From Geotalea uraniireducens Rf4 (lineage in GTDB: Bacteria > Desulfobacterota > Desulfuromonadia > Geobacterales > Geobacteraceae), in NCBI RefSeq assembly GCF_000016745.1, contig NC_009483.1, positions 270,001 through 302,000 on the forward strand: a stretch of 32,000 bases of DNA. Reading direction: 5' to 3'. Under the pieces are notes generated by a model. The model did no database searches, was not told where the DNA came from, and was given only the letters and a program-made list of their open reading frames with translations. Made by a program: the position numbers and the translations under genes. Shown piece after piece: positions 2,329 to 27,233 of this stretch; position 1 is the first letter of the stretch; the number at the start of each line of letters is the position of its first letter.

Positions 2329-4236
2329 ATGAGTAAAGTTATAGGTATTGACCTGGGAACCACCAACTCCTGCGTGGCGATTATGGAAGGTGGCGAGCCC
2401 ATTGTTATAGCCAATGCCGAGGGGAGCCGCACTACGCCTTCGATGGTTGCCATCACCGACAGCGGCGAGCGTCTGGTCGGGCAGCAGGCAAAGCGACAGG
2501 CCGTGACCAACCCGGAGAACACCCTGTTCGCCATTAAGCGCCTCATCGGCCGCAAGTTCGATTCCGAGGCGGTGAAGAAGGATATCGCCATCTCGCCGTT
2601 CAAGATCGTCAAAGCGGACAATGGCGACGCCTGGGTGGAGGTGCGCGGGCAGAAGTATTCAGCCCCCGAGATATCCGCCATGGTGCTGCAGAAAATGAAG
2701 AAAACCGCCGAAGACTACCTGGGGGAGACCGTTACCGACGCGGTCATCACCGTCCCCGCTTACTTCGATGACTCACAGCGCCAGGCGACCAAGGATGCCG
2801 GGAAGATCGCCGGCCTGAACGTGCTCAGGATCATCAACGAGCCGACTGCAGCAGCGCTTGCCTACGGCCTCGACAAGAAGAAGGACGAGAAGATTGCGGT
2901 CTTCGACCTGGGTGGCGGGACTTTCGACATATCCATTCTTGAGCTGGGGGAAGGGGTCTTTGAGGTGAAGTCTACCAACGGCGACACCTTCCTCGGCGGC
3001 GAGGATTTCGACCAGGACATCATCGACTGGATTGCCGCAGAGTTCAAAAAAGACCAGGGGATCGACCTGCGCGGCGACAAAATGGCACTGCAGAGGCTGA
3101 AGGAGGCTGCGGAAAAGGCCAAGTGCGAGCTTTCCACTTCCCTGGAAACCGATATCAACCTCCCCTTCATCACCGCCGATGCCACCGGCCCCAAGCACCT
3201 CAACCTGAAGCTGACCAGGGCAAAGCTTGAGGCGATATGCGCAAACCTGATCGCCAAGCTGGAAGGGCCGTGCAGGACAGCGCTCAAGGATGCCGGCCTC
3301 TCCCCCAATGACATCGACGAGGTGATCCTTGTCGGCGGGATGACCCGCATGCCGATAGTGCAGAAAAAGGTGCAGGACATCTTCGGCAAGGTCCCCAACC
3401 GCAGCGTCAACCCCGACGAGGTCGTGGCCATCGGCGCCGCCATCCAGGGGGGGGTGCTGAGAGGGGATGTCAAGGACGTGCTCCTGCTCGACGTCACCCC
3501 CCTCTCCCTCGGTATCGAGACCTTGGGCGGTGTCATGACCAGGCTGATCGAGAAGAACGCCACCATCCCGTGCCGCAAAAGCCAGATATTCTCCACGGCC
3601 GCTGACAACCAGCCGGCCGTCAGCATCCACGTGCTCCAGGGGGAACGGGAAATGTCGACGGACAACAAGACCCTCGGCAATTTCGAGTTGAGCGGCATCC
3701 CTCCCGCACCGCGTGGCGTTCCCCAGATCGAGGTGACCTTCGACATCGACGCCAACGGCATTGTCCATGTTTCCGCCAAGGACCTCGGGACCGGCAAGGA
3801 GCAGTCGATCCGTATCACCGCCTCTTCCGGCCTCTCCAAGGAAGAGATCGACAAGATGGTCAAGGACGCGGAGGCCCACTCCTCCGAGGACAAGAAGAAA
3901 CGCGAGCTGATCGAGGCGCGCAACCAGGCCGACAGCCTCGCCTATTCAACGGAAAAATCGCTCAAGGAGTTCGGCGACAAGATCGATGCCGCGGAAAAAC
4001 AGAAGATCGAAGACGGCCTTGCCGCCTTGAAAAAGGCGATGGAAGGGAGCGATGCCGACGCCATCAAGAAGGCGAGCGACGAGCTGATGCAGGCTTCCCA
4101 CAAGCTGGCCGAAGCGGTCTATGCAAAGGCCCAGCCCGGTGAAGAGCAGGCGGGGGGCGCTCCCCACGAAGGTGAGGCCAAGGACGAAAAGGTCGTTGAC
4201 GCCGATTTTGAAGAAGTGAAGGAAGACAAGAAGTAG
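2329..4236 (+). CDS. dnaK: molecular chaperone DnaK (Hsp70)
   Basis: 635 aa with Hsp70 signatures [21 protein letters not shown] and [17 protein letters not shown] Shine-Dalgarno upstream. Confidence 0.99.
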
Positions 4237-4291
4237 GGGCGCACCCATGTGTGCGCCCGATTTCCGGGCAGACACACGGGGCTGCCCCTAC
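4233..4291. repeat. REP/REPIN-like palindromic doublet with GTAG head
   Basis: GTAGGGGCGCAC-ccatgt-GTGCGCCC (4233-4258) and GGGCAG-acacacgggg-CTGCCCCTAC (4267-4291). Outer arms GTAGGGG / CCCCTAC are inverted. The TAG of the head is the dnaK stop codon (4234-4236). Confidence 0.8.
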
Positions 4292-12253: not shown

Positions 12254-13255
12254 ATGCAGGAAAGAGAAAAGGCGATTGACCTGGCTTTGAGCCAGATTGA
12301 AAAGCAGTTTGGAAAAGGCTCAATAATGCGGCTCGGCAATGACGAACCGTTGCCGGATGTCGCAGCCATCCCTACCGGTTCACTTTCTCTCGACATGGCT
12401 CTCGGCGTCGGCGGTGTTCCCAGGGGCAGGATTATCGAGATTTACGGCCCGGAATCATCGGGAAAAACGACCCTGGCGCTCCATATTGTTGCCGAAGCGC
12501 AGAAATTGGACGGCATTGCCGCATTCATTGACGCTGAGCATGCCCTGGATATCGGCTACGCCCGCAAGCTCGGCGTAAGGACCGACGACCTGCTGGTTTC
12601 CCAGCCGGATACGGGCGAACAGGCCCTGGAAATAGCGGAAACGCTGGTGCGAAGCGGCGCCATCGACGTGCTGGTCATAGATTCAGTGGCTGCGCTCGTT
12701 CCCAAGGCCGAAATCGAAGGCGACATGGGAGATTCGCACATGGGGCTCCAGGCGCGGCTCATGTCACAGGCCCTGCGCAAGCTTACCGGCATTATCAGCA
12801 AGTCCAACTGCTGCGTCATTTTCATCAACCAGATCAGGATGAAGATCGGCGTCATGTTCGGCAACCCGGAAACCACCACCGGCGGCAACGCCTTGAAGTT
12901 CTATGCTTCGGTGCGCATGGACATCCGGAAGATCGCGAGCCTCAAACAGGGAAATGACGTGATCGGTTCCCGCACCAAGGTGAAGGTGGTGAAAAACAAG
13001 GTGGCGCCTCCCTTCAAGGAAGTGGAATTCGATATCCTTTACGGTGAGGGAATTTCCCGCGAAGGGGATATTCTCGATCTGGCCGTTGAAAAAGGGGTGG
13101 TCGACAAGAGCGGCGCCTGGTTCTCTTACGGCAAGGAACGGATCGGCCAGGGGCGTGAAAATTCGCGCATCTATCTGAAACAGAACCCGGAAATCTGCGC
13201 GGAGATAAGGGAGAAGCTGACCCAGGCGCCGGTCCCGGCTGGAGGCGTTGCTTAA
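12254..13255 (+). CDS. recA: recombinase RecA
   Basis: 333 aa. N-terminus [24 protein letters not shown], Walker [10 protein letters not shown], and [16 protein letters not shown]. Confidence 0.98.
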
Positions 13256-13259
13256 ACCG

Positions 13260-14411
13260 ATGGAATTGAACGAGATGCTTACCATAGCGGTAAAGGCGCG
13301 CGGGTCGGATATTCATATCAAGACCGGCATGCCGCCCGTTGTCCGCATTGACGGCAAGCTGCGAGCAATTCCCAATGCCGAACGGCTCTCTGCCGACAAT
13401 GTCATGGCCATGGCTCTCGGCATCATGAACGAGCGGCAACAGAAGCAGTTCGACGAGAATTATGAAGTCGATCTGGCTTACGGCGTGCCGGGGTTGGGGC
13501 GTTTCCGCGTCAGTATCTTTGCCCAGAGGGGCACCATTGCCATGGTGTTCCGTGCCATTCCGTTCGGCATTCCGTCCCTGGAATCGCTCAACCTGCCGCC
13601 GATTCTGAAGAAACTGAGCCTGGAAGAGCGCGGCCTGATCCTCGTGACCGGCACCACCGGCAGCGGCAAGTCCACCACCCTGGCTGCGATGGTCGACTAT
13701 ATCAACGACCACCGCACCTGCAACATCATCACCATCGAAGATCCGGTGGAGTACCTGCACAGGGACAGGAAGAGCATCATCAGCCAGCGTGAGGTGGGAT
13801 TCGACACCGCATCTTTCGGCAGGGCACTGACCAGTTCCTTGCGCCAGGACCCGGACGTCATCCTGGTGGGGGAAATGCGGGATTTCGAGACCATCGAAAC
13901 AGCGCTGACCGCTGCAGAAACGGGCCATCTGGTCATGTCGACCCTGCACACCATCGATGCCGCCGAGACAATAAACCGCATCATCTCCGTGTTTCCCCCC
14001 TATCACCAGCGTCAGGTCAGGATGCAGCTTTCCGGCATCCTGAAAGGGGTCATTTCCCAGCGGCTCGTTCCCAGGGCGGACGGCAAGGGGAGGGTGCCTG
14101 CCGTCGAAATCATGATAAACACGGCGCGCATCCGCGACTGCATCGATGACAAGGAAAAGACCAAGCAGATTCCAGAGGCCATTGCCCAGGGTTTCACCAC
14201 TTACGGGATGCAGAGCTTCGACCAGTCGCTCATGCAGCTCTACACGAACAAGCTCATCACCTACGAAGAGGCGTTACGCCAGTCATCCAACCCTGACGAT
14301 TTCGCACTCAAGGTTTCCGGCATTTCTTCAACCTCCGATGCCAGCTGGGATCAGTTTGCCCTGGACGAGGGTGGCGAAGAAGGGGAGAAGCTGGAAACAG
14401 AAAAATACTGA
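13260..14411 (+). CDS. pilT: PilT-family type IV pilus retraction ATPase paralogue
   Basis: Walker A GTTGSGKSTT, Asp box IITIEDPVEY, Walker B DPDVILVGEMRD and His box GHLVMSTLHT. ATG 13260 (MELNEML...) aligns with PilT N-termini as I remember them. It lies 4 nt after the recA stop. Confidence 0.88.
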   Translation: MELNEMLTIAVKARGSDIHIKTGMPPVVRIDGKLRAIPNAERLSADNVMAMALGIMNERQQKQFDENYEVDLAYGVPGLGRFRVSIFAQRGTIAMVFRAIPFGIPSLESLNLPPILKKLSLEERGLILVTGTTGSGKSTTLAAMVDYINDHRTCNIITIEDPVEYLHRDRKSIISQREVGFDTASFGRALTSSLRQDPDVILVGEMRDFETIETALTAAETGHLVMSTLHTIDAAETINRIISVFPPYHQRQVRMQLSGILKGVISQRLVPRADGKGRVPAVEIMINTARIRDCIDDKEKTKQIPEAIAQGFTTYGMQSFDQSLMQLYTNKLITYEEALRQSSNPDDFALKVSGISSTSDASWDQFALDEGGEEGEKLETEKY

Positions 14412-20455: not shown

Positions 20456-21646
20456 ATGAATTCTGCGCAATGGATTGCAAAAGGCGACAAATACATCATG
20501 CGGACCTACGGCCGTTACCCGCTGGTGCCGGTTAAAGGCGAAGGGTGCTACCTGTGGGACGCGGACGGCAAGCGGTATCTCGACTTCCTCGCCGGGGTTG
20601 CGGTCAACAACCTGGGGCACTGCCACCCACGGGTGGTGGCTGCCCTGCAGAAGCAGGCGGCGGAGCTGATCCACTGCTCCAATTACTACCATATCCCGAC
20701 CCAGATCGAACTGGCGGAGATCCTCTGCAACCACTCCTTCGCCGACCGGGCCTTCTTCTGCAACAGCGGCGCCGAGGCCAACGAGGCGGCCATCAAGCTG
20801 GCCCGCAAGTACAGCCGGGAAAAGTACGGCCAGGACCGTTACGAGATCATCACCGCCCTCGCCTCGTTTCATGGCCGGACCATGGCCACCGTTTCGGCCA
20901 CCGGCCAGGAGAAGGTGCAGAAATTCTTCGATCCGCTCCTCCACGGTTTCCTTCACGTGCCGTTCAACGACGCCGATGCCCTGGAGAAAGCGGTCACCCC
21001 CAACACCTGTGCCATCATGCTGGAGCCGATCCAGGGGGAGGGTGGGGTGGTCGTTCCCGACGCCGAATACTTCCGCCAGGTGCGGCGCATCTGCGACGAG
21101 AACAACCTGCTCCTCATTTTCGACGAAGTCCAGGTGGGGATCGGCCGGACCGGCAAGCTCTTTGCCCACGAGCATTTCGGCGTCACCCCGGACATCATGA
21201 CCCTGGCCAAGGCCTTGGCCGGCGGTGCCCCCATCGGCACCATGCTGGCGCGGGAAGATCTGGCTGCTTCTTTCGGCCCCGGAACCCACGGCTCCACCTT
21301 CGGCGGCAACCCGCTGGTGACGGCAGCCGGCGTGGCCGTGATGCGGACCATCCTCGAAGAGGGGATACTCAACCATACCGAAGAAATGGGTGAATACCTC
21401 ATGGGCGAGCTGGAGGGGCTGAAGAAAAAGTTCCCCATCATCACCGATGTGCGCGGCATAGGACTGATGATCGGCATGGAGCTCTCCGTCCCGGCCGGCG
21501 ACATCGTCAAAAAGGGGCTGGAGCGGGGCGTGCTCTTGAACGTGGCCCAGGACCGGGTGCTCCGCTTTGTCCCGCCGCTCATCGTAGGGAAGAAGGAAGT
21601 GGACGAGATGATCGCTGTCCTCGATGGGATTCTGGCGGAGATGTAA
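20456..21646 (+). CDS. argD: acetylornithine aminotransferase
   Basis: 396 aa class-III aminotransferase. Motifs FCNSGAEANEAAIKLAR and DEVQVGIGRTGK, with the PLP lysine in TLAKALAGG. Confidence 0.94.
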   Translation: MNSAQWIAKGDKYIMRTYGRYPLVPVKGEGCYLWDADGKRYLDFLAGVAVNNLGHCHPRVVAALQKQAAELIHCSNYYHIPTQIELAEILCNHSFADRAFFCNSGAEANEAAIKLARKYSREKYGQDRYEIITALASFHGRTMATVSATGQEKVQKFFDPLLHGFLHVPFNDADALEKAVTPNTCAIMLEPIQGEGGVVVPDAEYFRQVRRICDENNLLLIFDEVQVGIGRTGKLFAHEHFGVTPDIMTLAKALAGGAPIGTMLAREDLAASFGPGTHGSTFGGNPLVTAAGVAVMRTILEEGILNHTEEMGEYLMGELEGLKKKFPIITDVRGIGLMIGMELSVPAGDIVKKGLERGVLLNVAQDRVLRFVPPLIVGKKEVDEMIAVLDGILAEM

Positions 21647-21656
21647 TCATTATCTT

Positions 21657-21683
21657 GCAGGGGCGCATGCCATGCGCCCCTAC
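21657..21683. repeat. REP-like palindrome GCAGGGGCGCATG-C-CATGCGCCCCTAC
   Basis: 10-bp arms GGGGCGCATG 21660-21669 and CATGCGCCCC 21671-21680. The head is GCAG (one mismatch from GTAG) and the tail is CTAC. Confidence 0.8.
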
Positions 21684-21700: not shown

Positions 21701-22618
21701 ATGAAACGAGATTTTCTGGCACTGAGCCAGTTTACGAAAACGGAGCTGGACGCCATCTTTGCCCTGACCCGGGAGTTGCAGCAGAAGCAGAAGCAAGGGA
21801 TCGAACACCACCTGCTCAAGGGGAAGACCCTGGCGATGATCTTCGAGAAGTCCTCCACCAGGACCCGCGTCTCCTTCGAGGTGGGGATGTACCAGCTTGG
21901 CGGCCATCCCCTGTTCATCTCCACCAAGGATTCCCAGATGGGGCGCGGCGAGCCGATCAAGGATACGGCCCGGGTCATGGCCCGCTACTGCGATGGGGTG
22001 ATGATCCGCACCTACGGCCAGGAAATCGTCGAGGAGTTCGCCCGTTACTCTGCCGTGCCGGTCATCAACGGCCTCACCGACCTGCATCACCCCTGCCAGA
22101 TCATGGCAGACCTGTTCACGGTCATCGAGCACAGAGGCTCCTACGAGGGGCTGAAAATCGCCTGGGTGGGGGACGGCAACAACATGGCCAACACCTGGAT
22201 CGAGGCCGCCGCCATCTTCGGTTTCGATCTGACCCTGGCCTGCCCCAAAGGGTACGAGCCGGACGCGCGCGTGATGGCGTGGGCGCAGGCAAAAGCAACG
22301 TCCAGGATTGTCCTGACAGACGACCCGCATGAGGCTGTCAAGGATGCGGATGTCATCAATACCGACGTCTGGGCCAGCATGGGGCAGGAGGCGGAACAGA
22401 AAGCGCGGGAAAAGGCCTTTGCCGGCTACCAGCTGAACGAGGCGCTCCTCGATCCGGCCCGCGGGAACTGCATGGTCCTGCACTGCCTCCCCGCCCACCG
22501 GGGCGAGGAGATCACCGACGACGTCATCGAGGGGCCACATTCGGCGGTCTGGGACGAGGCGGAGAACAGGCTGCATGTGCAGAAAGCGATCATGGCGACC
22601 TTGATGGGTGCACGCTGA
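21701..22618 (+). CDS. argF: ornithine carbamoyltransferase
   Basis: 305 aa. Carbamoyl-phosphate motif STRTRVSFE, plus HPCQIMAD and HCLPAHRGEE. Confidence 0.95.
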   Translation: MKRDFLALSQFTKTELDAIFALTRELQQKQKQGIEHHLLKGKTLAMIFEKSSTRTRVSFEVGMYQLGGHPLFISTKDSQMGRGEPIKDTARVMARYCDGVMIRTYGQEIVEEFARYSAVPVINGLTDLHHPCQIMADLFTVIEHRGSYEGLKIAWVGDGNNMANTWIEAAAIFGFDLTLACPKGYEPDARVMAWAQAKATSRIVLTDDPHEAVKDADVINTDVWASMGQEAEQKAREKAFAGYQLNEALLDPARGNCMVLHCLPAHRGEEITDDVIEGPHSAVWDEAENRLHVQKAIMATLMGAR

Positions 22619-22766: not shown

Positions 22767-23987
22767 ATGGCAAAAAAAGAAGTGAAAAAGATCGTCCTCG
22801 CCTATTCCGGCGGGCTGGATACCTCCATCATCCTCAAGTGGCTGAAGAACGAGTACGGCTGCGAAGTCATCACCTTTTCCGCCGACCTGGGCCAAGGGGA
22901 CGAATTGACGCCGATCCGCGACAAGGCTTTTGCCACCGGCGCCGACAAGGTTTACATAGACGATCTAAGGGAAGAATTCGTCCGCGACTTCGTTTTCCCC
23001 ATGTTCCGCGCCAATGCCATCTATGAGGGACATTATCTCCTCGGCACCTCCATTGCCCGGCCGCTGATCGCCAAACGGCAGATGGAGATCGCAAAGATCG
23101 AGGGGGCCGACGCGGTTTCCCACGGCGCCACCGGCAAGGGAAACGACCAGGTCCGCTTCGAGCTGGGCTACTACCACTTCAACCCGGCCATCACGGTCAT
23201 CGCCCCCTGGCGGGACTGGAAGCTCAACAGCCGCCAGGCCCTCATCAACTATGCGAAGAAGAACGACATACCCATCCCGGTCACCAAGAAGCGCCCCTGG
23301 TCTTCCGACCGCAACCTGCTCCACATCTCCTTCGAAGGGGCAATCCTGGAGGATACCTGGGCTGAAGCGCCCGAGAACATGTACGTGCTGACCAAGTCTC
23401 CGGAAAAGGCTCCAAACAAGCCCCAGTACGTGGAGATCGAGTTCAGGAACGGCAATGCGGTGGCCGTGGACGGGGAGGCGATGTCGCCGGCCCAGCTCCT
23501 CGCCCATCTCAACTTCATCGGCGGCGAGCACGGCATCGGCCGGGTGGACCTGCTGGAGAACCGTTCGGTGGGGATGAAGTCCCGCGGCGTTTATGAAACG
23601 CCCGGCGGCACCATCCTCCGCGAGGCGCACATGGCGGTGGAACAGATCACCATGGACCGCGAGGTCATGCACCTGCGCGACTCCCTCATCCCCCGCTATG
23701 CGGAGATGGTCTACAACGGCTACTGGTTCTCCCCGGAGCGGGAGATGCTCCAGACCATGATCGACGAATCGCAGAAGACCGTCAATGGCGTGGCCCGGGT
23801 CAAGCTTTACAAGGGGCATTGCCGTACGGTCGGCCGCAAGTCCGAGACCGACTCGCTTTTCAACCTGGATTTCGCCACCTTCGAGAAGGACCAGGTCTAC
23901 AACCAGAAGGACGCCGAAGGGTTCATCAAGCTCAATTCGCTCAGGCTGCGCATTCGTTCGCTCATGCAGGCAGCAAAAAAGAAATAA
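22767..23987 (+). CDS. argG: argininosuccinate synthase
   Basis: 406 aa. N-type ATP-pyrophosphatase P-loop AYSGGLDTS, plus [15 protein letters not shown]. Confidence 0.98.
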
Positions 23988-24040
23988 CGGCGGCGGGCCG
24001 ATGCGTCCATCTGCCCTCCCGTAACAGAGGAATATCTATT

Positions 24041-24068
24041 GTAGGGGCACGGTACGCCGTGCCCCTAC
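24041..24068. repeat. REP-like palindrome GTAGGGGCACGG-tacg-CCGTGCCCCTAC
   Basis: Perfect 12-bp arms 24041-24052 and 24057-24068 with GTAG head and CTAC tail. It ends 8 nt before the Nudix ATG. Confidence 0.88.
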
Positions 24069-24076
24069 GGTCTTCT

Positions 24077-24520
24077 ATGCCACAGATAAAATTCAAAAAA
24101 GAACATATCGTCACCTCGGTAGTCGCTGTTATCATCGACGACGACGAACGGGTCCTCTTGACCAAGCGCAATATCCCCCCCTTCCTGGACCTGTGGGTGA
24201 TGCCCGGCGGCAAGATAAACCTGGGGGAGCCGATCATGAAGGCTCTGCACCGTGAAGTCATGGAAGAGGTGGGGCTGGAGGTGGAGGTGGAGGGGCTGAT
24301 CGATGTCTTCGAGCACCTCACGCCGGGTGACGACAATAACCATTTCGTTATCCTCTACTACCGTTGTCGCCCCCTCTACTGCGAAGTGGCGCATAATCCG
24401 TTAGAGGTGGCCGAGGCCAGATGGGTGCCGCGGCCGGAACTGGTGCAGTACAGAATGCCGGAAGGGACACGCTTTATCCTGGGGAAGATCTTCCCGGAAC
24501 TCTGCAGCTGCGAAGTTTAG
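24077..24520 (+). CDS. Nudix hydrolase (MutT-like, substrate unknown)
   Basis: 147 aa from ATG 24077. Canonical Nudix box GX5EX7REUXEEXGU, seen as GGKINLGEPIMKALHREVMEEVGLEV. The upstream part of track ORF 23819 overlaps argG and is rejected. Confidence 0.85.
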   Translation: MPQIKFKKEHIVTSVVAVIIDDDERVLLTKRNIPPFLDLWVMPGGKINLGEPIMKALHREVMEEVGLEVEVEGLIDVFEHLTPGDDNNHFVILYYRCRPLYCEVAHNPLEVAEARWVPRPELVQYRMPEGTRFILGKIFPELCSCEV

Positions 24521-24527
24521 AAATCTG

Positions 24528-24560
24528 CCGGACACGAAGAAACGGTTTCCGGTGATTTTT
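24528..24560 (+). terminator. weak hairpin + T5 between the Nudix gene and the orphan gene (possible attenuator)
   Basis: CCGGA 24528-24532 pairs with TCCGG 24548-24552, with inner palindrome GAAACgGTTTC. Followed by TGATTTTT (T-run 24556-24560). Confidence 0.3.
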
Positions 24561-24580
24561 CCCCGGGTCTCAAAGACTCT

Positions 24581-25771
24581 ATGGCAATAACAAAGGTCTT
24601 CATGGTCCAGATCATCGACAAAAAGGTCAACCTGGAGTTTCCCCAGGGGCATCATCTCCACTGCCTGATCGCCCAGATCCCCAACCATCTGCGGCGGATC
24701 GAGCAGGGGTTTGCCATTACCGACCCTGATGAAAAATGGGCGCAGGTGAAGGCTCTTCTCGATCTTGTCTGCGCCGGGGAAGGCAACATGAAGAAGCTCC
24801 ACTTCCTCATGTTGCCGGAGAGCGCCATTCCCTTTGCCCGCTTTGATGAATTGCTGGCGATTATCGAAAACAGCTTCCGCCCCAACACGGTTACCATGTT
24901 CGGCGTTGAGCATGTGCGGCTGAAGACCTACCGGGAACTTCTGGCGCGGTTCAGCGCCGATAACGCCGAAGCCATTGAGCTGGTGGACAAGGATATCGAC
25001 TCGGGCGACATCCTGAACATGCCGGTCAACTGGTGCTGCATCGCCATCAAGGAGGCCACCGGCGCGTTGAGGGTGTTTCTCGAAGCAAAGTCGCACCCGT
25101 TCCATGGTGAAGAATTTCTCGACAAATACCACGACCTTTACCGGGGCCGCCATTTTTACCTGTTCAGGAGTCGTCCTTCCTGCTTTAACTTCATGACCCT
25201 GATCTGCCTCGACTACATTTACCGTGATCTCTATTCCTCCAACATCAAGCAGATCATCGACCATGCCGACCAGCTCTTCTTCAGCACCAGGCAAGGCCTC
25301 GACGCACTGTTTGTCATCCAGTGCAATCCCAAGCCGGAACATCACTCCTACCATGATGTTGTCAGCGGTTTTTACGGAGAATACCTGGAGGATACGCCAG
25401 GGGTGCGGGAAACCATCACGGTCTTTGCCAACAGTTCGGAAGAGACGAGCCTGGAGGAGCTTCACGAGCAGGCCGCCTACGGCAATTCGTTCGTGGTGAT
25501 AAACAAGCACCACAAGCTCGGCAAGGTGAAGCAGCCGGAGTTCTCCACCGATGATTTCAACGGCGCGCCGGTTTGCAGGCTCCGCTTCGGCACGGCCACC
25601 CGGCTCTATTACTTCAACCTGCCGCTGCACCACGAGCTCGATCCCCGTACCAGCAGGGTGCCGCTCAAGGTGCACTTCATCATGCGCTGGAATGAAGAAG
25701 GCGGATGGGAACGGCTTTCCGGTGAAGATGTGGCAACAGGTTTCGAGCTCAGCCGGGATGCGTTGACGTAG
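24581..25771 (+). CDS. orphan 396-aa protein; divergent nitrilase/carbon-nitrogen-hydrolase-superfamily candidate (function unknown)
   Basis: Long uninterrupted ORF in the operon orientation. Motifs in the canonical order: FLMLPE (E80), VFLEAKSHPF (K170), HGEE (E177/178) and MTLICLDYIY (C209). Alternative start is ATG 24602, preceded by AAAGG. Confidence 0.75.
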   Translation: MAITKVFMVQIIDKKVNLEFPQGHHLHCLIAQIPNHLRRIEQGFAITDPDEKWAQVKALLDLVCAGEGNMKKLHFLMLPESAIPFARFDELLAIIENSFRPNTVTMFGVEHVRLKTYRELLARFSADNAEAIELVDKDIDSGDILNMPVNWCCIAIKEATGALRVFLEAKSHPFHGEEFLDKYHDLYRGRHFYLFRSRPSCFNFMTLICLDYIYRDLYSSNIKQIIDHADQLFFSTRQGLDALFVIQCNPKPEHHSYHDVVSGFYGEYLEDTPGVRETITVFANSSEETSLEELHEQAAYGNSFVVINKHHKLGKVKQPEFSTDDFNGAPVCRLRFGTATRLYYFNLPLHHELDPRTSRVPLKVHFIMRWNEEGGWERLSGEDVATGFELSRDALT

Positions 25772-25836
25772 GGGCGGGGTTTCCCCGTCCCGGGTGAAAA
25801 TGCATGATGGATTGGGCGGGAAGACCCCGCCCCTAC
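25768..25836. repeat. REPIN-like doublet with perfect 13-bp outer arms GTAGGGGCGGGGT / ACCCCGCCCCTAC
   Basis: Left arm 25768-25780, right arm 25824-25836. Each half can also fold locally (CGGGG-ttt-CCCCG; GGGCGG-gaagac-CCGCCC). The TAG of the head is the stop codon of the orphan gene (25769-25771). Confidence 0.88.
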
Positions 25837-25856
25837 ATTACTGACAGGAGATATAC

Positions 25857-27233
25857 ATGTCCAAGGACAAACTGTGGGGTGGCCGTTTCACCCAGCCAAC
25901 CGATAAATTCGTCGAGGAGTTCACCGCTTCCATCGATTTCGACAAGCGCCTGTATCACCAGGATATCCGCGGCTCCATCGCCCATGCCCGGATGCTCGGC
26001 AAACAGAAGATCATCCCGATGGCGGACGTGGAGAAGATAGTGCAGGGACTCCAGGAGATCCTCGCCCAGATCGAGGCGGGAACCTTCGATTTTTCCATTT
26101 CCCTTGAAGACATCCACATGAACATCGAGTCGCGCCTCTCGGCCAAGATCGGCGAGGCGGGAAAACGGCTCCATACCGGCCGATCGAGGAACGACCAGGT
26201 GGCCCTGGACATCCGCCTCTATCTGCGGGACGAGCTGGTGGAGATCAGCGCCTACCTGGAACTCCTCATCGATTCCCTGATCTTCCAGGCGGAAAAGAAC
26301 ATAGATGTGATCATGCCGGGCTACACCCATCTCCAGACCGCCCAGCCGATCCTCTTCGCCCACCACATGCTCGCCTACGTGGAGATGTTCAAGCGGGACA
26401 TCGGCAGGATCGAGGATTGTCTGAAGCGGGCCAACGTCCTTCCGCTCGGCGCCGGCGCCCTGGCCGGAACCACCTTCCCCATCGACCGGGAGCATGTGGC
26501 CGAGCTGCTCGATTTTCCCGCGGTGACCCGCAACTCCCTCGATTCCGTATCGGACCGGGATTTCGCTCTTGAGTTCCTGGCCGATGCGTCGATCCTCATG
26601 ATGCACCTTTCCCGCTTCTCCGAGGAGCTGATCCTCTGGTCGACGAGCGAGTTCAAGTTCATCGAGCTCTCCGACGGCTTCTGTACCGGCTCCTCCATCA
26701 TGCCACAGAAGAAGAACCCCGATGTCCCGGAACTGGTGCGGGGGAAGACCGGCCGGGTCTACGGCAACCTGATGGCGCTCCTGACGGTGATGAAGTCGCT
26801 CCCGCTCGCCTACAACAAGGACATGCAGGAGGACAAGGAGCCGCTCTTCGACACCATCGACACGGTCAAGGGCTCACTCAAGATCTTCGCCGACATGATC
26901 CGCGAGATGCGGGTCAATGTGGCGACCATGCGCCAGGCAGCGGCCAAGGGGTTCTCCACTGCCACCGACGTGGCCGACTACCTGGTACGCAAGGGGATGC
27001 CGTTTCGCGACGCCCACGAGGTGGTGGGGAAATCGGTGGCCTACTGCATCGCAGAGAAGAAAGACCTGCCGGAACTCTCCATCGAGGAGTGGCGGTCCTT
27101 TTCCGACAAGATCGATGAGGATATCTACGACGCCATCACCCTGGAGGCGAGCGTCAACGCCCGCCGGGCCACCGGCGGCACGGCGCTGGAAAGGGTGAAG
27201 GCGGAGATCGAAAGGGCCAAGGTCGGGAGATAG
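25857..27233 (+). CDS. argH: argininosuccinate lyase
   Basis: 458 aa. N-terminus [18 protein letters not shown] and fumarate-lyase signature [11 protein letters not shown]. Confidence 0.98.

Follow-up and report, generated by a model that had tools for sequence, protein, structure and literature searches.

A deep-branching nitrilase-superfamily protein encoded between argG and argH, commonly next to a Nudix hydrolase, and its relationship to the heads of microbial immune effectors

The nitrilase superfamily includes metabolite-repair amidases such as Nit1 and Nit2, as well as proteins in which an amidase of this fold is paired with an enzyme that cleaves nucleotide pyrophosphates, namely NitFhit, where Nit is combined with the Ap3A hydrolase Fhit. 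Domains of this superfamily are found in antiviral proteins, too. 'CN-hydrolase' is listed among the domains associated with bNACHT proteins (Kibby et al., bioRxiv 10.1101/2022.07.19.500537), and the nitrilase of DRT1, one of the UG reverse transcriptase (RT)-nitrilase fusions, is a regulated abortive-infection effector that acts within a filament and for which the authors pose the question of the substrate (PMC13275509, 2026). In the same paper, the nitrilase-bearing UG/Abi reverse transcriptases belong to class 3, not to class 1 as the earlier note on the present DNA had it. Here we describe a protein of this superfamily, denoted X396, that is encoded in the arginine biosynthesis locus of Geotalea uraniireducens Rf4, within the 32,000-nucleotide stretch that was analysed (the window), and compare it with these systems.

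The X396 gene and a gene for a 147-aa Nudix hydrolase are located on the forward strand between the genes for argininosuccinate synthase (argG, 22767..23987; Pfam Arginosuc_synth, 3.3e-64, and Arginosuc_syn_C, 1.1e-79) and argininosuccinate lyase (argH, 25857..27233; Lyase_1, 1.1e-77, and ASL_C2, 1.6e-30). The Nudix gene (24077..24520) is followed, after an 81-nt spacer (24521..24601), by X396 (24602..25771); on re-reading, the positions given earlier for the genes, for the maximal open reading frame of X396 (24581-25771) and for the catalytic codons all hold. The four genes are co-directional and closely spaced, the arrangement typical of an arg operon, and neither a terminator search nor folding revealed a terminator between argG and argH. 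The "weak hairpin + T5" that the earlier note placed at 24528-24560 shows no excess folding stability over shuffled sequence (z = +0.11) and contains no called terminator, so that the candidate terminator separating the Nudix gene from X396 was rejected. Judging from this layout, X396 appears to reside inside the argG-argH transcription unit in Geobacterales as well as in NC10.

The maximal open reading frame encodes the 396 aa originally reported, but the real start of X396 is almost certainly M8 (ATG at 24602), yielding a protein of 389 aa, because the equivalent codon is ATG in all 73 orthologous loci and the homologues open with MVQII; an AAAGG motif is present 5-9 nt upstream of this ATG. 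Residues are nevertheless numbered here from the maximal-frame start at 24581 and not from M8. A Nudix gene directly precedes X396 in 73 of the 80 genome loci, with a median gap of 5 nt and an overlap, often of 8 nt, in 32 of the 73, in support of the proposal that the two genes form a unit; at these distances, X396 is probably translationally coupled to the upstream Nudix gene in Desulfuromonadota. Fusions of the two were not detected among the data examined, the sole candidate (P0267) being a 137-aa chimeric fragment.

Sequence searches alone do not place X396. No match was obtained at E<=1 in Pfam, the CN_hydrolase family (PF00795) included, and NCBIfam was likewise empty; the 25 families that 68 members of the X396 family matched most frequently (Pfam, E<=1) did not include CN_hydrolase, and three profile searches against PDB yielded nothing significant, with nitrilase-superfamily amidases appearing at E-values of 0.5 to 2. 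The nitrilase assignment therefore rests on structure and motif conservation. An AF2 model built from a diverse alignment of 68 sequences has a pLDDT of 90.8 and a pTM of 0.92 (it supersedes a poor first run on 26 close orthologues, with a pLDDT of 53.5) and shows the alpha-beta-beta-alpha sandwich of the nitrilase fold. When this model was compared with PDB using Foldseek, all 48 matches at E<=1e-3 were to the nitrilase superfamily (probability 0.99-1.00), with the next match at E = 0.08; the matched proteins include AmiF (3.7e-9), aliphatic amidase, Nit3, D-carbamoylase, N-carbamoylputrescine amidase, vanin, Lnt and nitrilases, and the target-normalised TM scores range from 0.47 to 0.60 across all these branches. 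The BFVD library of viral structures yielded no match to the model at E<=1e-3. Thus, the suspicion that this orphan is a cryptic nitrilase-superfamily protein proved correct despite the blank Pfam and NCBIfam searches, and X396 belongs to a deep branch of the superfamily that is modelled by no curated library. Two details of the initial reading need revision. The nitrilase fold begins with the strand HCLIAQIP (residues 25-34), in which Q32 is more than 90% conserved, and not with the KVFMVQII segment that opens the frame; and the last ~140 residues, described as free of motifs, contain the conserved N249, N284 and G301-x-S303, with FANSS...YGNSFVV (residues ~282-306) aligning with the 'vaNatG...fGhS' segment of aliphatic amidase.

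The Glu-Lys-Glu-Cys tetrad that had been read by eye is retained in 94-100% of the 79 remote relatives that cover the motif columns at no more than 28% identity, and is invariant in 71 distinct standalone homologues, 36 of which are at most 62% identical. Specifically, P79, Glu80 (24818..24820, motif LPE) and Lys170 (25088..25090) are present in 79/79 of the remote relatives, Cys209 (25205..25207, motif ICLD) and D211 in 77/79 each, and Glu177 (25109..25111) in 74/79, whereas all six residues are found in 71/71 standalone homologues. Conservation was thus borne out for E80, K170 and C209 but not for E178, the second Glu initially favoured, which is found in only 25 of the 79; its neighbour E177 is the conserved one. 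In the alignments, E80 falls on the catalytic FPE Glu of AmiE, AmiF and D-carbamoylase, and the spacing is that of the superfamily, with the second Glu 7 residues and the Cys 39 residues downstream of the Lys. From the model and these alignments, X396 is predicted to be a catalytically competent, cytosolic enzyme with Cys209 as the nucleophile, Glu80 as the base, Lys170, and Glu177 in an auxiliary role. That the curated families miss X396 might be taken to mean that it is a non-catalytic pseudo-enzyme or scaffold, or an unexpressed reading frame. We find this hardly credible given that, besides the tetrad, at least eight further residues of the pocket region are invariant across the 71 homologues from two phyla, the dN/dS ratio is 0.14, the ATG start is retained in 73/73 loci, and the gene shows the apparent translational coupling described above.

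With the characterized amidases (AmiF, AmiE, Nit1/Nit2/Nit3, D-carbamoylase and N-carbamoylputrescine amidohydrolase), X396 shares the fold, the order and spacing of the tetrad and the 'fPE' and 'aN..G...fGxS' segments. However, it is only about 10% identical to the known nitrilase-superfamily amidases, falls into no named branch and differs from them by an N-terminal beta-hairpin region (residues 8-46) and additional C-terminal strands.

The partner protein resembles Nudix hydrolases of the MutT, NUDT18 and RppH type: it matches the fold family (Pfam NUDIX, PF00293, 1.7e-20), the canonical box GX5EX7REUXEEXGU can be read directly in the sequence, with GKINLGEPIMKALHREVMEEVGL intact, and the closest relatives in PDB are MutT proteins, NUDT18 and BdRppH. 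It scores below the cut-off of every NCBIfam equivalog, including TIGR00586 (MutT 8-oxo-dGTPase; 48.6 bits against a cut-off of 97.9), and therefore no substrate can be assigned to it. As a combination of a nitrilase-type amidase with a nucleotide-pyrophosphate hydrolase, the X396 unit is reminiscent of NitFhit, but the partner is a Nudix and not a HIT protein, the two genes are adjacent or overlapping and not fused, and the Nit branch is a different one. The combination of a CoA-type Nudix with a vanin-like pantetheinase was considered and dropped, given that LLTKRNIPPFLDLWVMPGG, which precedes the Nudix box, does not, when read by eye, fit the CoA-Nudix signature, and that vanin ranks only 36th among the structural matches of X396.

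In 62 of 80 genomes, X396 occupies the same fixed locus between argG and argH. The pair that the earlier note suspected in Geobacter sulfurreducens does exist: GSU0154 and GSU0155 are encoded between argG and argH. In a neighbourhood survey, the placement of the pair in the arginine cluster held for most genomes, but the pair was also found outside arg clusters. The argG-Nudix-X-argH order persists down to 45-49% identity of X396, and the initial view that the arginine link is specific to Geobacteraceae was withdrawn after a metagenome scan recovered it in divergent lineages and in the phylum NC10. The order argG-X-argH, without a Nudix gene, is found in 13 NC10-type loci, where the intergenic gaps measure 21-169 nt and 23-44 nt. 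The Nudix partner is also absent in a BirA-linked lineage and in Holophagaceae; a 169-aa open reading frame upstream of the BirA-linked homologues, examined as a diverged Nudix, is not one. Given these absences in several lineages, a strict two-enzyme pathway is not universal, and the position in the arg operon appears to outlast the Nudix partner, as in NC10. The unit has moved out of the arg cluster on several occasions while remaining intact, and in the non-arg contexts X396 is found among ordinary metabolic genes; the neighbours there are ABC-F, an OB+HD protein, IleS, ackA, BirA, and an RRM protein with mini-RNase III. The BirA linkage comes from a single lineage, with BirA proteins that are 93-100% identical, and no IleS gene is present upstream of the P0124 homologue.

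The dN/dS ratios are 0.138 for X396 and 0.116 for the Nudix gene, compared to 0.072-0.133 for argD, argF, argG and argH. Thus, in Geobacterales, X396 is a standalone, vertically inherited protein that is constrained by purifying selection to the same degree as the arginine enzymes encoded on either side. It is nevertheless dispensable in the laboratory, as follows from the published Tn-seq of G. sulfurreducens (PMC5585712, Table S2), where GSU0154 (1685 reads, 13.5 sites/kb) and GSU0155 (1627 reads, 7.7 sites/kb) both show log2 fitness values near 0, whereas argG (6 reads) and argH (2 reads) were called essential. In the same libraries, argB, argD and argF are essential as well, and GSU0154 and GSU0155 are non-essential; accordingly, neither gene is required for arginine prototrophy.

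The explanation that we favor, with a probability of roughly 0.45, is that X396, with or without the Nudix hydrolase, is a non-essential metabolite damage-control amidase attached to the arginine operon. Under this scenario, X396 would be a thiol amidase that works via an acyl-enzyme (thioester) intermediate and clears a non-peptide amide, ureido or lactam by-product of the flux through ArgG and ArgH; the argininosuccinate cyclic anhydrides (lactams) are a concrete candidate substrate. Where present, the Nudix hydrolase would remove a by-product, adenylylated or dinucleotide, of the adenylation step of ArgG, and the two proteins would be expressed along with the final two steps of arginine synthesis as a non-essential damage-control module. 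What ties X396 to arginine is synteny, and a gene that has landed between co-transcribed essential neighbours may stay there through inertia, which counts against the damage-control reading. Further arguments against an arginine role are that the Nudix protein resembles (d)NTP and RNA-end pyrophosphohydrolases, with nothing arginine-specific about it, that the intact unit left the arg cluster several times, and that no fitness cost was seen in a screen that did score the arginine genes as essential (PMC5585712).

The same location in the operon, together with the presence of D-carbamoylase and N-carbamoylputrescine amidase among the structural matches, could indicate that X396 is a flux or catabolic enzyme of the arginine pathway instead of a repair enzyme, for example, a citrullinase-like hydrolase of citrulline or N-carbamoyl compounds or an amidase of arginine- or polyamine-derived amides; the citrulline ureidase of Francisella is a C-N hydrolase. 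We regard this as very unlikely: the breakdown of citrulline by hydrolysis between the two steps of argG and argH would be a futile reaction, the Tn-seq fitness effect is absent, and the structure is no nearer to the carbamoylases than to the other branches.

Somewhat doubtful, although still a possibility of some weight, is that X396 is a housekeeping amidase or deacylase of general scope that has nothing specific to do with arginine and came to lie in the arg operon by historical chance. In one version of this explanation, X396 reverses N-acyl (amide) adducts formed by the reactive acyl donors of adenylate-forming enzymes or by acetyl-phosphate, in a manner resembling biotinidase, the enzyme that frees biotin from lysine, while the Nudix hydrolase clears ApnA or adenylate by-products. 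The unit recurs beside ArgG, IleS and BirA, all of which are adenylate-forming, and beside ackA, and it stays intact on moving between contexts; vanin, a protein of the biotinidase branch, gives the longest alignment (372 columns) of the structural matches, and Nudix-type Ap4A hydrolases and the Nit-Fhit fusion are established parallels. The neighbour pattern, however, is post hoc and comprises about 8 independent contexts, of which the BirA link is the single-lineage case described above and the ABC-F, OB+HD and RRM/mini-RNase III neighbours are off-pattern; vanin, at rank 36, is outside the best structural matches; and argG-X-argH, found in two phyla, is by far the most persistent context.

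Outside the enzymes of metabolism, the closest relatives of X396 are parts of defense proteins. Residues 11-309 of X396 match positions 7-304 of the 604-position PADLOC profile PDLC03850, which represents the Lamassu protein LmuA, in the effector head (5e-27), and the relatives of this LmuA type, exemplified by P0184 and P0189 (about 600 aa), keep the catalytic tetrad of X396. However, X396 lacks the C-terminal half of LmuA, ending ~80 residues past the match in unrelated sequence, and occupies a fixed site in the core genome and not a variable island. The DefenseFinder name 'Lamassu-Amidase' may denote the same type as PDLC03850. X396-type heads are also fused to NB-ARC, NACHT or nSTAND domains and TPR or HEAT repeats in the STAND relatives P0166, P0177 and P0181, whereas X396 is standalone, with neither the NTPase nor the repeat sensor of STAND and bNACHT proteins. 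The DRT1/UG fusions likewise include a nitrilase-fold domain bearing the tetrad, but an RT domain is missing from X396, and at the sequence level the connection is slight, with several X396 relatives matching the RT_UG5-nitrilase model weakly (4e-5 to 8e-5) and X396 itself yielding 0.047 over residues 49-121. The deep nitrilase branch to which X396 belongs also supplies the N-terminal heads of one LmuA type and of the STAND/NACHT/TPR fusions.

These relationships raise the question of whether the unit could be an immune module, either domesticated or active to this day, that has become fixed in the core genome, with the nitrilase head as a toxic effector and the Nudix hydrolase as its antidote or regulator. 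Apart from the LmuA match and the fusions of relatives to NB-ARC, NACHT, nSTAND and TPR, such a role would be compatible with the position of P0189, which is followed by a 786-aa SMC_N/AAA_15/AAA_23 protein, an SMC-like LmuB, with the non-essentiality of both genes and with the abortive-infection function of the DRT1 nitrilase domain (PMC13275509). The Nudix protein, furthermore, matches the PADLOC candidate PDC-S07 at 1e-18, but this is a bare Nudix profile of 135 positions that any MutT-like protein may match. We consider an immune module improbable. X396 has no sensor or regulatory domain and no LmuA C-terminal domain; no LmuB, LmuC or STAND partner is encoded in the window, where the 10 other large open reading frames match no Lamassu model; the chromosomal site is fixed across one order and a second phylum; dN/dS is on par with that of the biosynthetic neighbours; defense genes are never among the neighbours in the contexts surveyed; and several lineages do without the Nudix partner with no apparent harm. 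Insertions in the Nudix gene are tolerated as well, although this point is weakened by polarity on the downstream gene. In Geobacterales, X396 behaves as a housekeeping gene and not as a defense gene.

A broader and rather unlikely possibility is that X396 is a constitutive housekeeping counterpart of the nitrilase-type 'killer head' of Lamassu, the NLR-like STAND proteins and perhaps DRT1, acting on an amide adduct of adenylate-forming enzymes (with ArgG, IleS and BirA as recurrent neighbours), while the Nudix hydrolase clears the nucleotide by-product. If true, the substrate of X396 would reveal the cellular target of the nitrilase-type immune effectors. More generally, X396 links a tractable, non-toxic housekeeping enzyme to the anti-phage nitrilase heads, and its biochemistry could make the question of their substrate testable. 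The conserved hypothetical family GSU0155/Geob_1126, which is missed by the curated libraries and occurs both in Geobacter, a model genus of electroactive bacteria, and in NC10 methanotrophs, can now be given a fold and a predicted catalytic mechanism, and offers a clear-cut candidate for a previously undescribed metabolite damage-control activity inside a much-studied biosynthetic operon, for which non-lethal mutants exist. The paper text that was searched contains no mention of GSU0154, GSU0155, Gura_0227 or Geob_1126, nor of 'Lamassu-Amidase'.

The REP hairpins described as flanking the Nudix-X396 pair are real. The REP-like perfect hairpin in the interval between argG and the Nudix gene (24036..24072; MFE -27.7 kcal/mol, z = -6.2) is formed by an inverted pair of GTAGGGGC at 24041-24068, and the longer REP-like hairpin (25764..25840; MFE -46.7 kcal/mol, z = -5.5), with GTAGGGGC at 25768 and its inverse at 25829, extends over the stop codon of X396, upstream of argH. 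The motif common to both hairpins, GTAGGGGC, occurs 7 times compared to 0.69 occurrences expected.

Within the arginine cluster of Geotalea uraniireducens Rf4, which runs on the forward strand through argD (20456-21646), argF (21701-22618), argG (22767-23987) and argH (25857-27233), the argG-argH interval accommodates a gene for a 147-aa MutT/RppH-like Nudix hydrolase (24077-24520) and the orphan X396 (maximal ORF 24581-25771, the numbering of which is used here). The coordinates given in the earlier note were all right, including the codons of Glu80, Lys170, Glu177/178 and Cys209. The best database match of X396, at 100% identity, is a 389-aa hypothetical protein from Geotalea uraniireducens. 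Homologues begin with MVQII and an ATG is found at the equivalent codon in 73/73 orthologous loci, which, judging from the alignments, almost certainly puts the true start at Met8 (the ATG at 24602) and the length at 389 aa. A terminator scan found no terminator-like site between argG, the Nudix-X396 pair and argH. A 424-aa ORF on the minus strand (24401-25675), antisense to almost all of X396, was taken as non-coding because most genes of this GC-rich window face long antisense ORFs.

X396 has no match in Pfam or NCBIfam at E<=1, and a profile of its close orthologues found nothing among PDB sequences; weak PDB profile matches (E 0.5-2) were almost all to nitrilase-superfamily amidases. Searching 1.84 billion representatives with a deep profile yielded 253 relatives, and an AlphaFold2 model built on 68 diverse sequences reached a pLDDT of 90.8 and a pTM of 0.92 (pLDDT 53.5 from close orthologues only). 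In a Foldseek comparison of this model with the PDB, all 48 matches at E<=1e-3 belong to the nitrilase superfamily (next E = 0.08); among them are the formamidase AmiF (3.7e-9), aliphatic amidase, yeast Nit3, D-carbamoylase, N-carbamoylputrescine amidohydrolase, vanin-1, Lnt, nitrilases and cyanide dihydratase. In the weak PDB profile alignments, Glu80 in the LPE motif of X396 lines up with the FPE catalytic glutamate found in AmiE, AmiF and D-carbamoylase. Of the remote relatives with <=28% identity, 79 span the respective columns; in these, Pro79, Glu80 and Lys170 are kept in all 79, Cys209 and Asp211 in 77, and Asn249 in 76. The fold match and the motif conservation together therefore vindicate the earlier note, which had proposed a cryptic nitrilase tetrad; of the two candidates for its second glutamate, 7-8 residues past the lysine, Glu177 is kept in 74/79 relatives and Glu178 in only 25/79, and KVFMVQII is not the opening strand, as the core fold begins with the strand HCLIAQIP (residues 25-34). 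Compared to the rest of the superfamily, the model adds N-terminal beta-strands (residues 8-46) and C-terminal strands. Thus, as modelled, X396 represents a very divergent branch of the nitrilase superfamily, of a catalytic kind that is already known, the branch itself being uncurated. The full conserved-residue set is invariant in 71 distinct standalone metagenome homologues (36 of these at <=62% identity); at the level of sequence, X396 has an intact nitrilase-type active site and belongs to the operon, and a pseudo-enzyme appears extremely improbable. That X396 is, jointly, an active nitrilase-fold hydrolase, housekeeping and operonic is predicted with high confidence.

Orthologues with 67-87% identity occupy the same site throughout the Geobacterales. 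The Nudix gene lies directly upstream of X396 in 73 of the 80 genome loci, X396 is found in the arg cluster in 62, and 43 of these loci have the complete argD-argF-argG-Nudix-X-argH-lipoprotein order. The Nudix stop and the X396 start are a median of 5 nt apart; the distance is at most 30 nt in 57/73 loci, with overlaps, mostly of 8 nt, in 32/73; by this spacing, the two genes are predicted to form a single translational unit in most Desulfuromonadota. In the window, the gap is 81 nt, and the weak hairpin with a T5 run suspected there folds only as well as shuffled sequences do (z = +0.11). A metagenomic 137-aa protein, P0267, matches the Nudix N-terminus with residues 2-52 (3e-21) and X396 residues ~112-143 with residues 104-135; this chimeric fragment probably stems from a deletion or from faulty assembly and not from a genuine fusion.

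Folding supported the REP-like hairpins thought to bracket the pair (24041-24068 and 25768-25836; z = -6.2 and -5.5). Both contain GTAGGGGC, a motif with 7 occurrences in the window compared to 0.69 expected; the elements at 4233-4291 and 21676-21683 are also built on it. The copies are arranged as inverted pairs in intergenic spacers, one of these at 4233/4284, with one lone copy between argD and argF.

In comparisons with 13 relatives, the dN/dS ratios are 0.138 for X396, 0.116 for Nudix and 0.072-0.133 for argD, argF, argG and argH, values that are approximate because dS is near saturation. In the same genome pairs, the mean dS of Nudix (1.24) and X396 (1.14) exceeds that of the four arg genes (0.69-0.89), as could be expected if the inserted pair had a weaker codon bias or were expressed at a lower level.

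The suspected equivalent pair in Geobacter sulfurreducens was confirmed between argG (GSU0153) and argH (GSU0156): GSU0154 is annotated as 'NUDIX hydrolase, type 15' and GSU0155, the X396 orthologue, as 'hypothetical protein'. In the Tn-seq data of Chan et al. 2017 (Table S2; essential, <300 reads or <=4 sites/kb), GSU0154 (1685 reads, 13.5 sites/kb) and GSU0155 (1627 reads, 7.7 sites/kb) are non-essential, with log2 fitness of ~0, and argG (6 reads, 2.5 sites/kb) and argH (2 reads, 1.5 sites/kb) are essential (PMC5585712). The dispensability of the pair places it outside the core arginine pathway; that X396 is a flux or catabolic enzyme seems improbable. The pair tolerates insertions in spite of having the essential argH immediately downstream, which implies that argH has its own promoter or that the transposon reads through.

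Thirteen Desulfuromonadales loci carry the pair elsewhere, but the position of X396 between argG and argH in distant metagenome lineages speaks against the arg link being a local accident. In the metagenome scan, argG-Nudix-X-argH is retained at 45-61% X396 and 64-78% ArgG identity. A further 13 loci (L089, L090, L094, L095, L097, L100, L108, L111, L114, L115, L118, L121, L122; X396 identity 45-46%) show argG-X-argH without Nudix, with gaps of 21-169 nt and 23-44 nt; by source names, this lineage belongs to another phylum, candidate division NC10/Ca. Methylomirabilis, some homologues from which bear the JGI label 'predicted amidohydrolase'. The argG-argH position therefore predates the partnership with Nudix and is the more persistent of the two.

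Outside the arg cluster, the neighbours are ordinary genes, namely those for an ABC-F ATPase, an MFS transporter, an OB+HD protein, an NtrC-type regulator, IleS, acetate kinase and succinate dehydrogenase. In the Geobacter argillaceus group (L015, L016, L019, L020), the order is IleS-X-argH without Nudix: a rearrangement split Nudix and argG from X396, which remained with argH. In six Geothrix/Holophagaceae-labelled contigs (L023, L026, L081, L133, L136, L138), X is divergent from ackA and lacks Nudix; given the GC content of 67-68% (64-65% in the X gene itself) versus 58% in the window, and 73-75% X396 identity, horizontal transfer between Fe(III)-reducing lineages is probable. In one lineage with 47-48% X396 identity (L093, L099, L106, L107, L110, L112, L126), a BirA-type biotin-protein ligase gene is fixed 52 nt after X, a 169-aa Cys-rich ORF without a Pfam match precedes X in five loci, and L126 has nadC farther upstream. 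As biotinidase is a member of the nitrilase superfamily, a biotin-recycling role is conceivable for this lineage. In a single case (L085, 5598-7600), the 43% identical P0123 follows an RRM_1 RNA-binding protein gene and overlaps the subsequent mini-RNase III gene by 14 nt, with neither Nudix nor arg genes. Homologues ~70-73% identical to the Geotalea protein in a 'Pedobacter sp.' MAG (L038, with the Geobacter-type Nudix-X-argH order) and in a 'Burkholderiales bacterium' (P0087) likely reflect mis-binning.

By established superfamily chemistry, Cys209 would attack the carbon of a non-peptide amide, ureido, lactam or nitrile group, with Glu80 as the base and Lys170 and Glu177 stabilizing the intermediate; ammonia or an amine would be released, and the thioester formed would then be hydrolysed by water. 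Conservation, non-essentiality and predicted co-transcription with the last two arginine steps add up to the profile of metabolite damage control. Nit1 and Nit2 are enzymes of this kind, and we infer that X396 could function similarly, with argininosuccinate cyclic anhydrides as a candidate substrate, whereas Nudix, where present, could clear an adenylylated or dinucleotide by-product of ArgG. This reading is tentative (probability of about 0.45), and an arginine-specific substrate, taken separately, is doubtful. The main alternative, a general deacylase without a tie to arginine, draws on the adenylate-forming neighbours ArgG, IleS and BirA, which account for three of the ~8 independent contexts; the pattern is suggestive but was spotted post hoc, and we consider this alternative rather unlikely.

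Another alternative is raised by remote relatives in defense systems. In PADLOC, residues 11-309 of X396 match the first half of the model PDLC03850 for the Lamassu protein LmuA (5e-27, positions 7-304/604), and ~600-aa relatives match it at full length (1e-162 and 1e-170), one being followed by a 786-aa SMC_N/AAA_15/AAA_23 protein, the LmuA-LmuB arrangement. In other relatives, the head precedes NTPases of the NB-ARC, NACHT or nSTAND type that carry TPR or HEAT repeats, or only TPR arrays; some weakly match the nitrilase part of the DRT UG5 model (4e-5 to 8e-5), and a 699-aa relative sits among small toxin-antitoxin-like genes. 'CN-hydrolase' is among the listed fusion domains of bacterial NACHT proteins (bioRxiv 10.1101/2022.07.19.500537); a survey of Lamassu from 2025 mentions in its text Cap4, Mrr, protease, Sir2, FMO, HNH, SMEK and lipase heads, without nitrilase or amidase. 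A 2026 paper on DRT1 shows its nitrilase domain to be an abortive-infection effector, the substrate of which is stated to be unknown (PMC13275509). X396 lacks the C-terminal half of LmuA, and no SMC-like, LmuC or STAND partner was found beside it or elsewhere in the 32-kb window. Given the absence of LmuA partners, the fixed site, the arg-like dN/dS and the ordinary neighbours elsewhere, the Geobacter X396 is not a defense gene, and a cryptic defense or toxin-antidote role of X396 and Nudix is improbable. A literature search found no description of the standalone core-genome form, of its presence in the arg operon of two phyla or of its Nudix coupling; X396 offers solid, testable material for enzyme discovery and is of wider appeal as a relative of immune effector heads that is tractable. 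Elsewhere in the window, two overlapping ORFs on the plus strand (12254-13255, 333 aa; 13248-14411, 387 aa) show weak PADLOC matches to mad8 (6e-7 and 2e-8).
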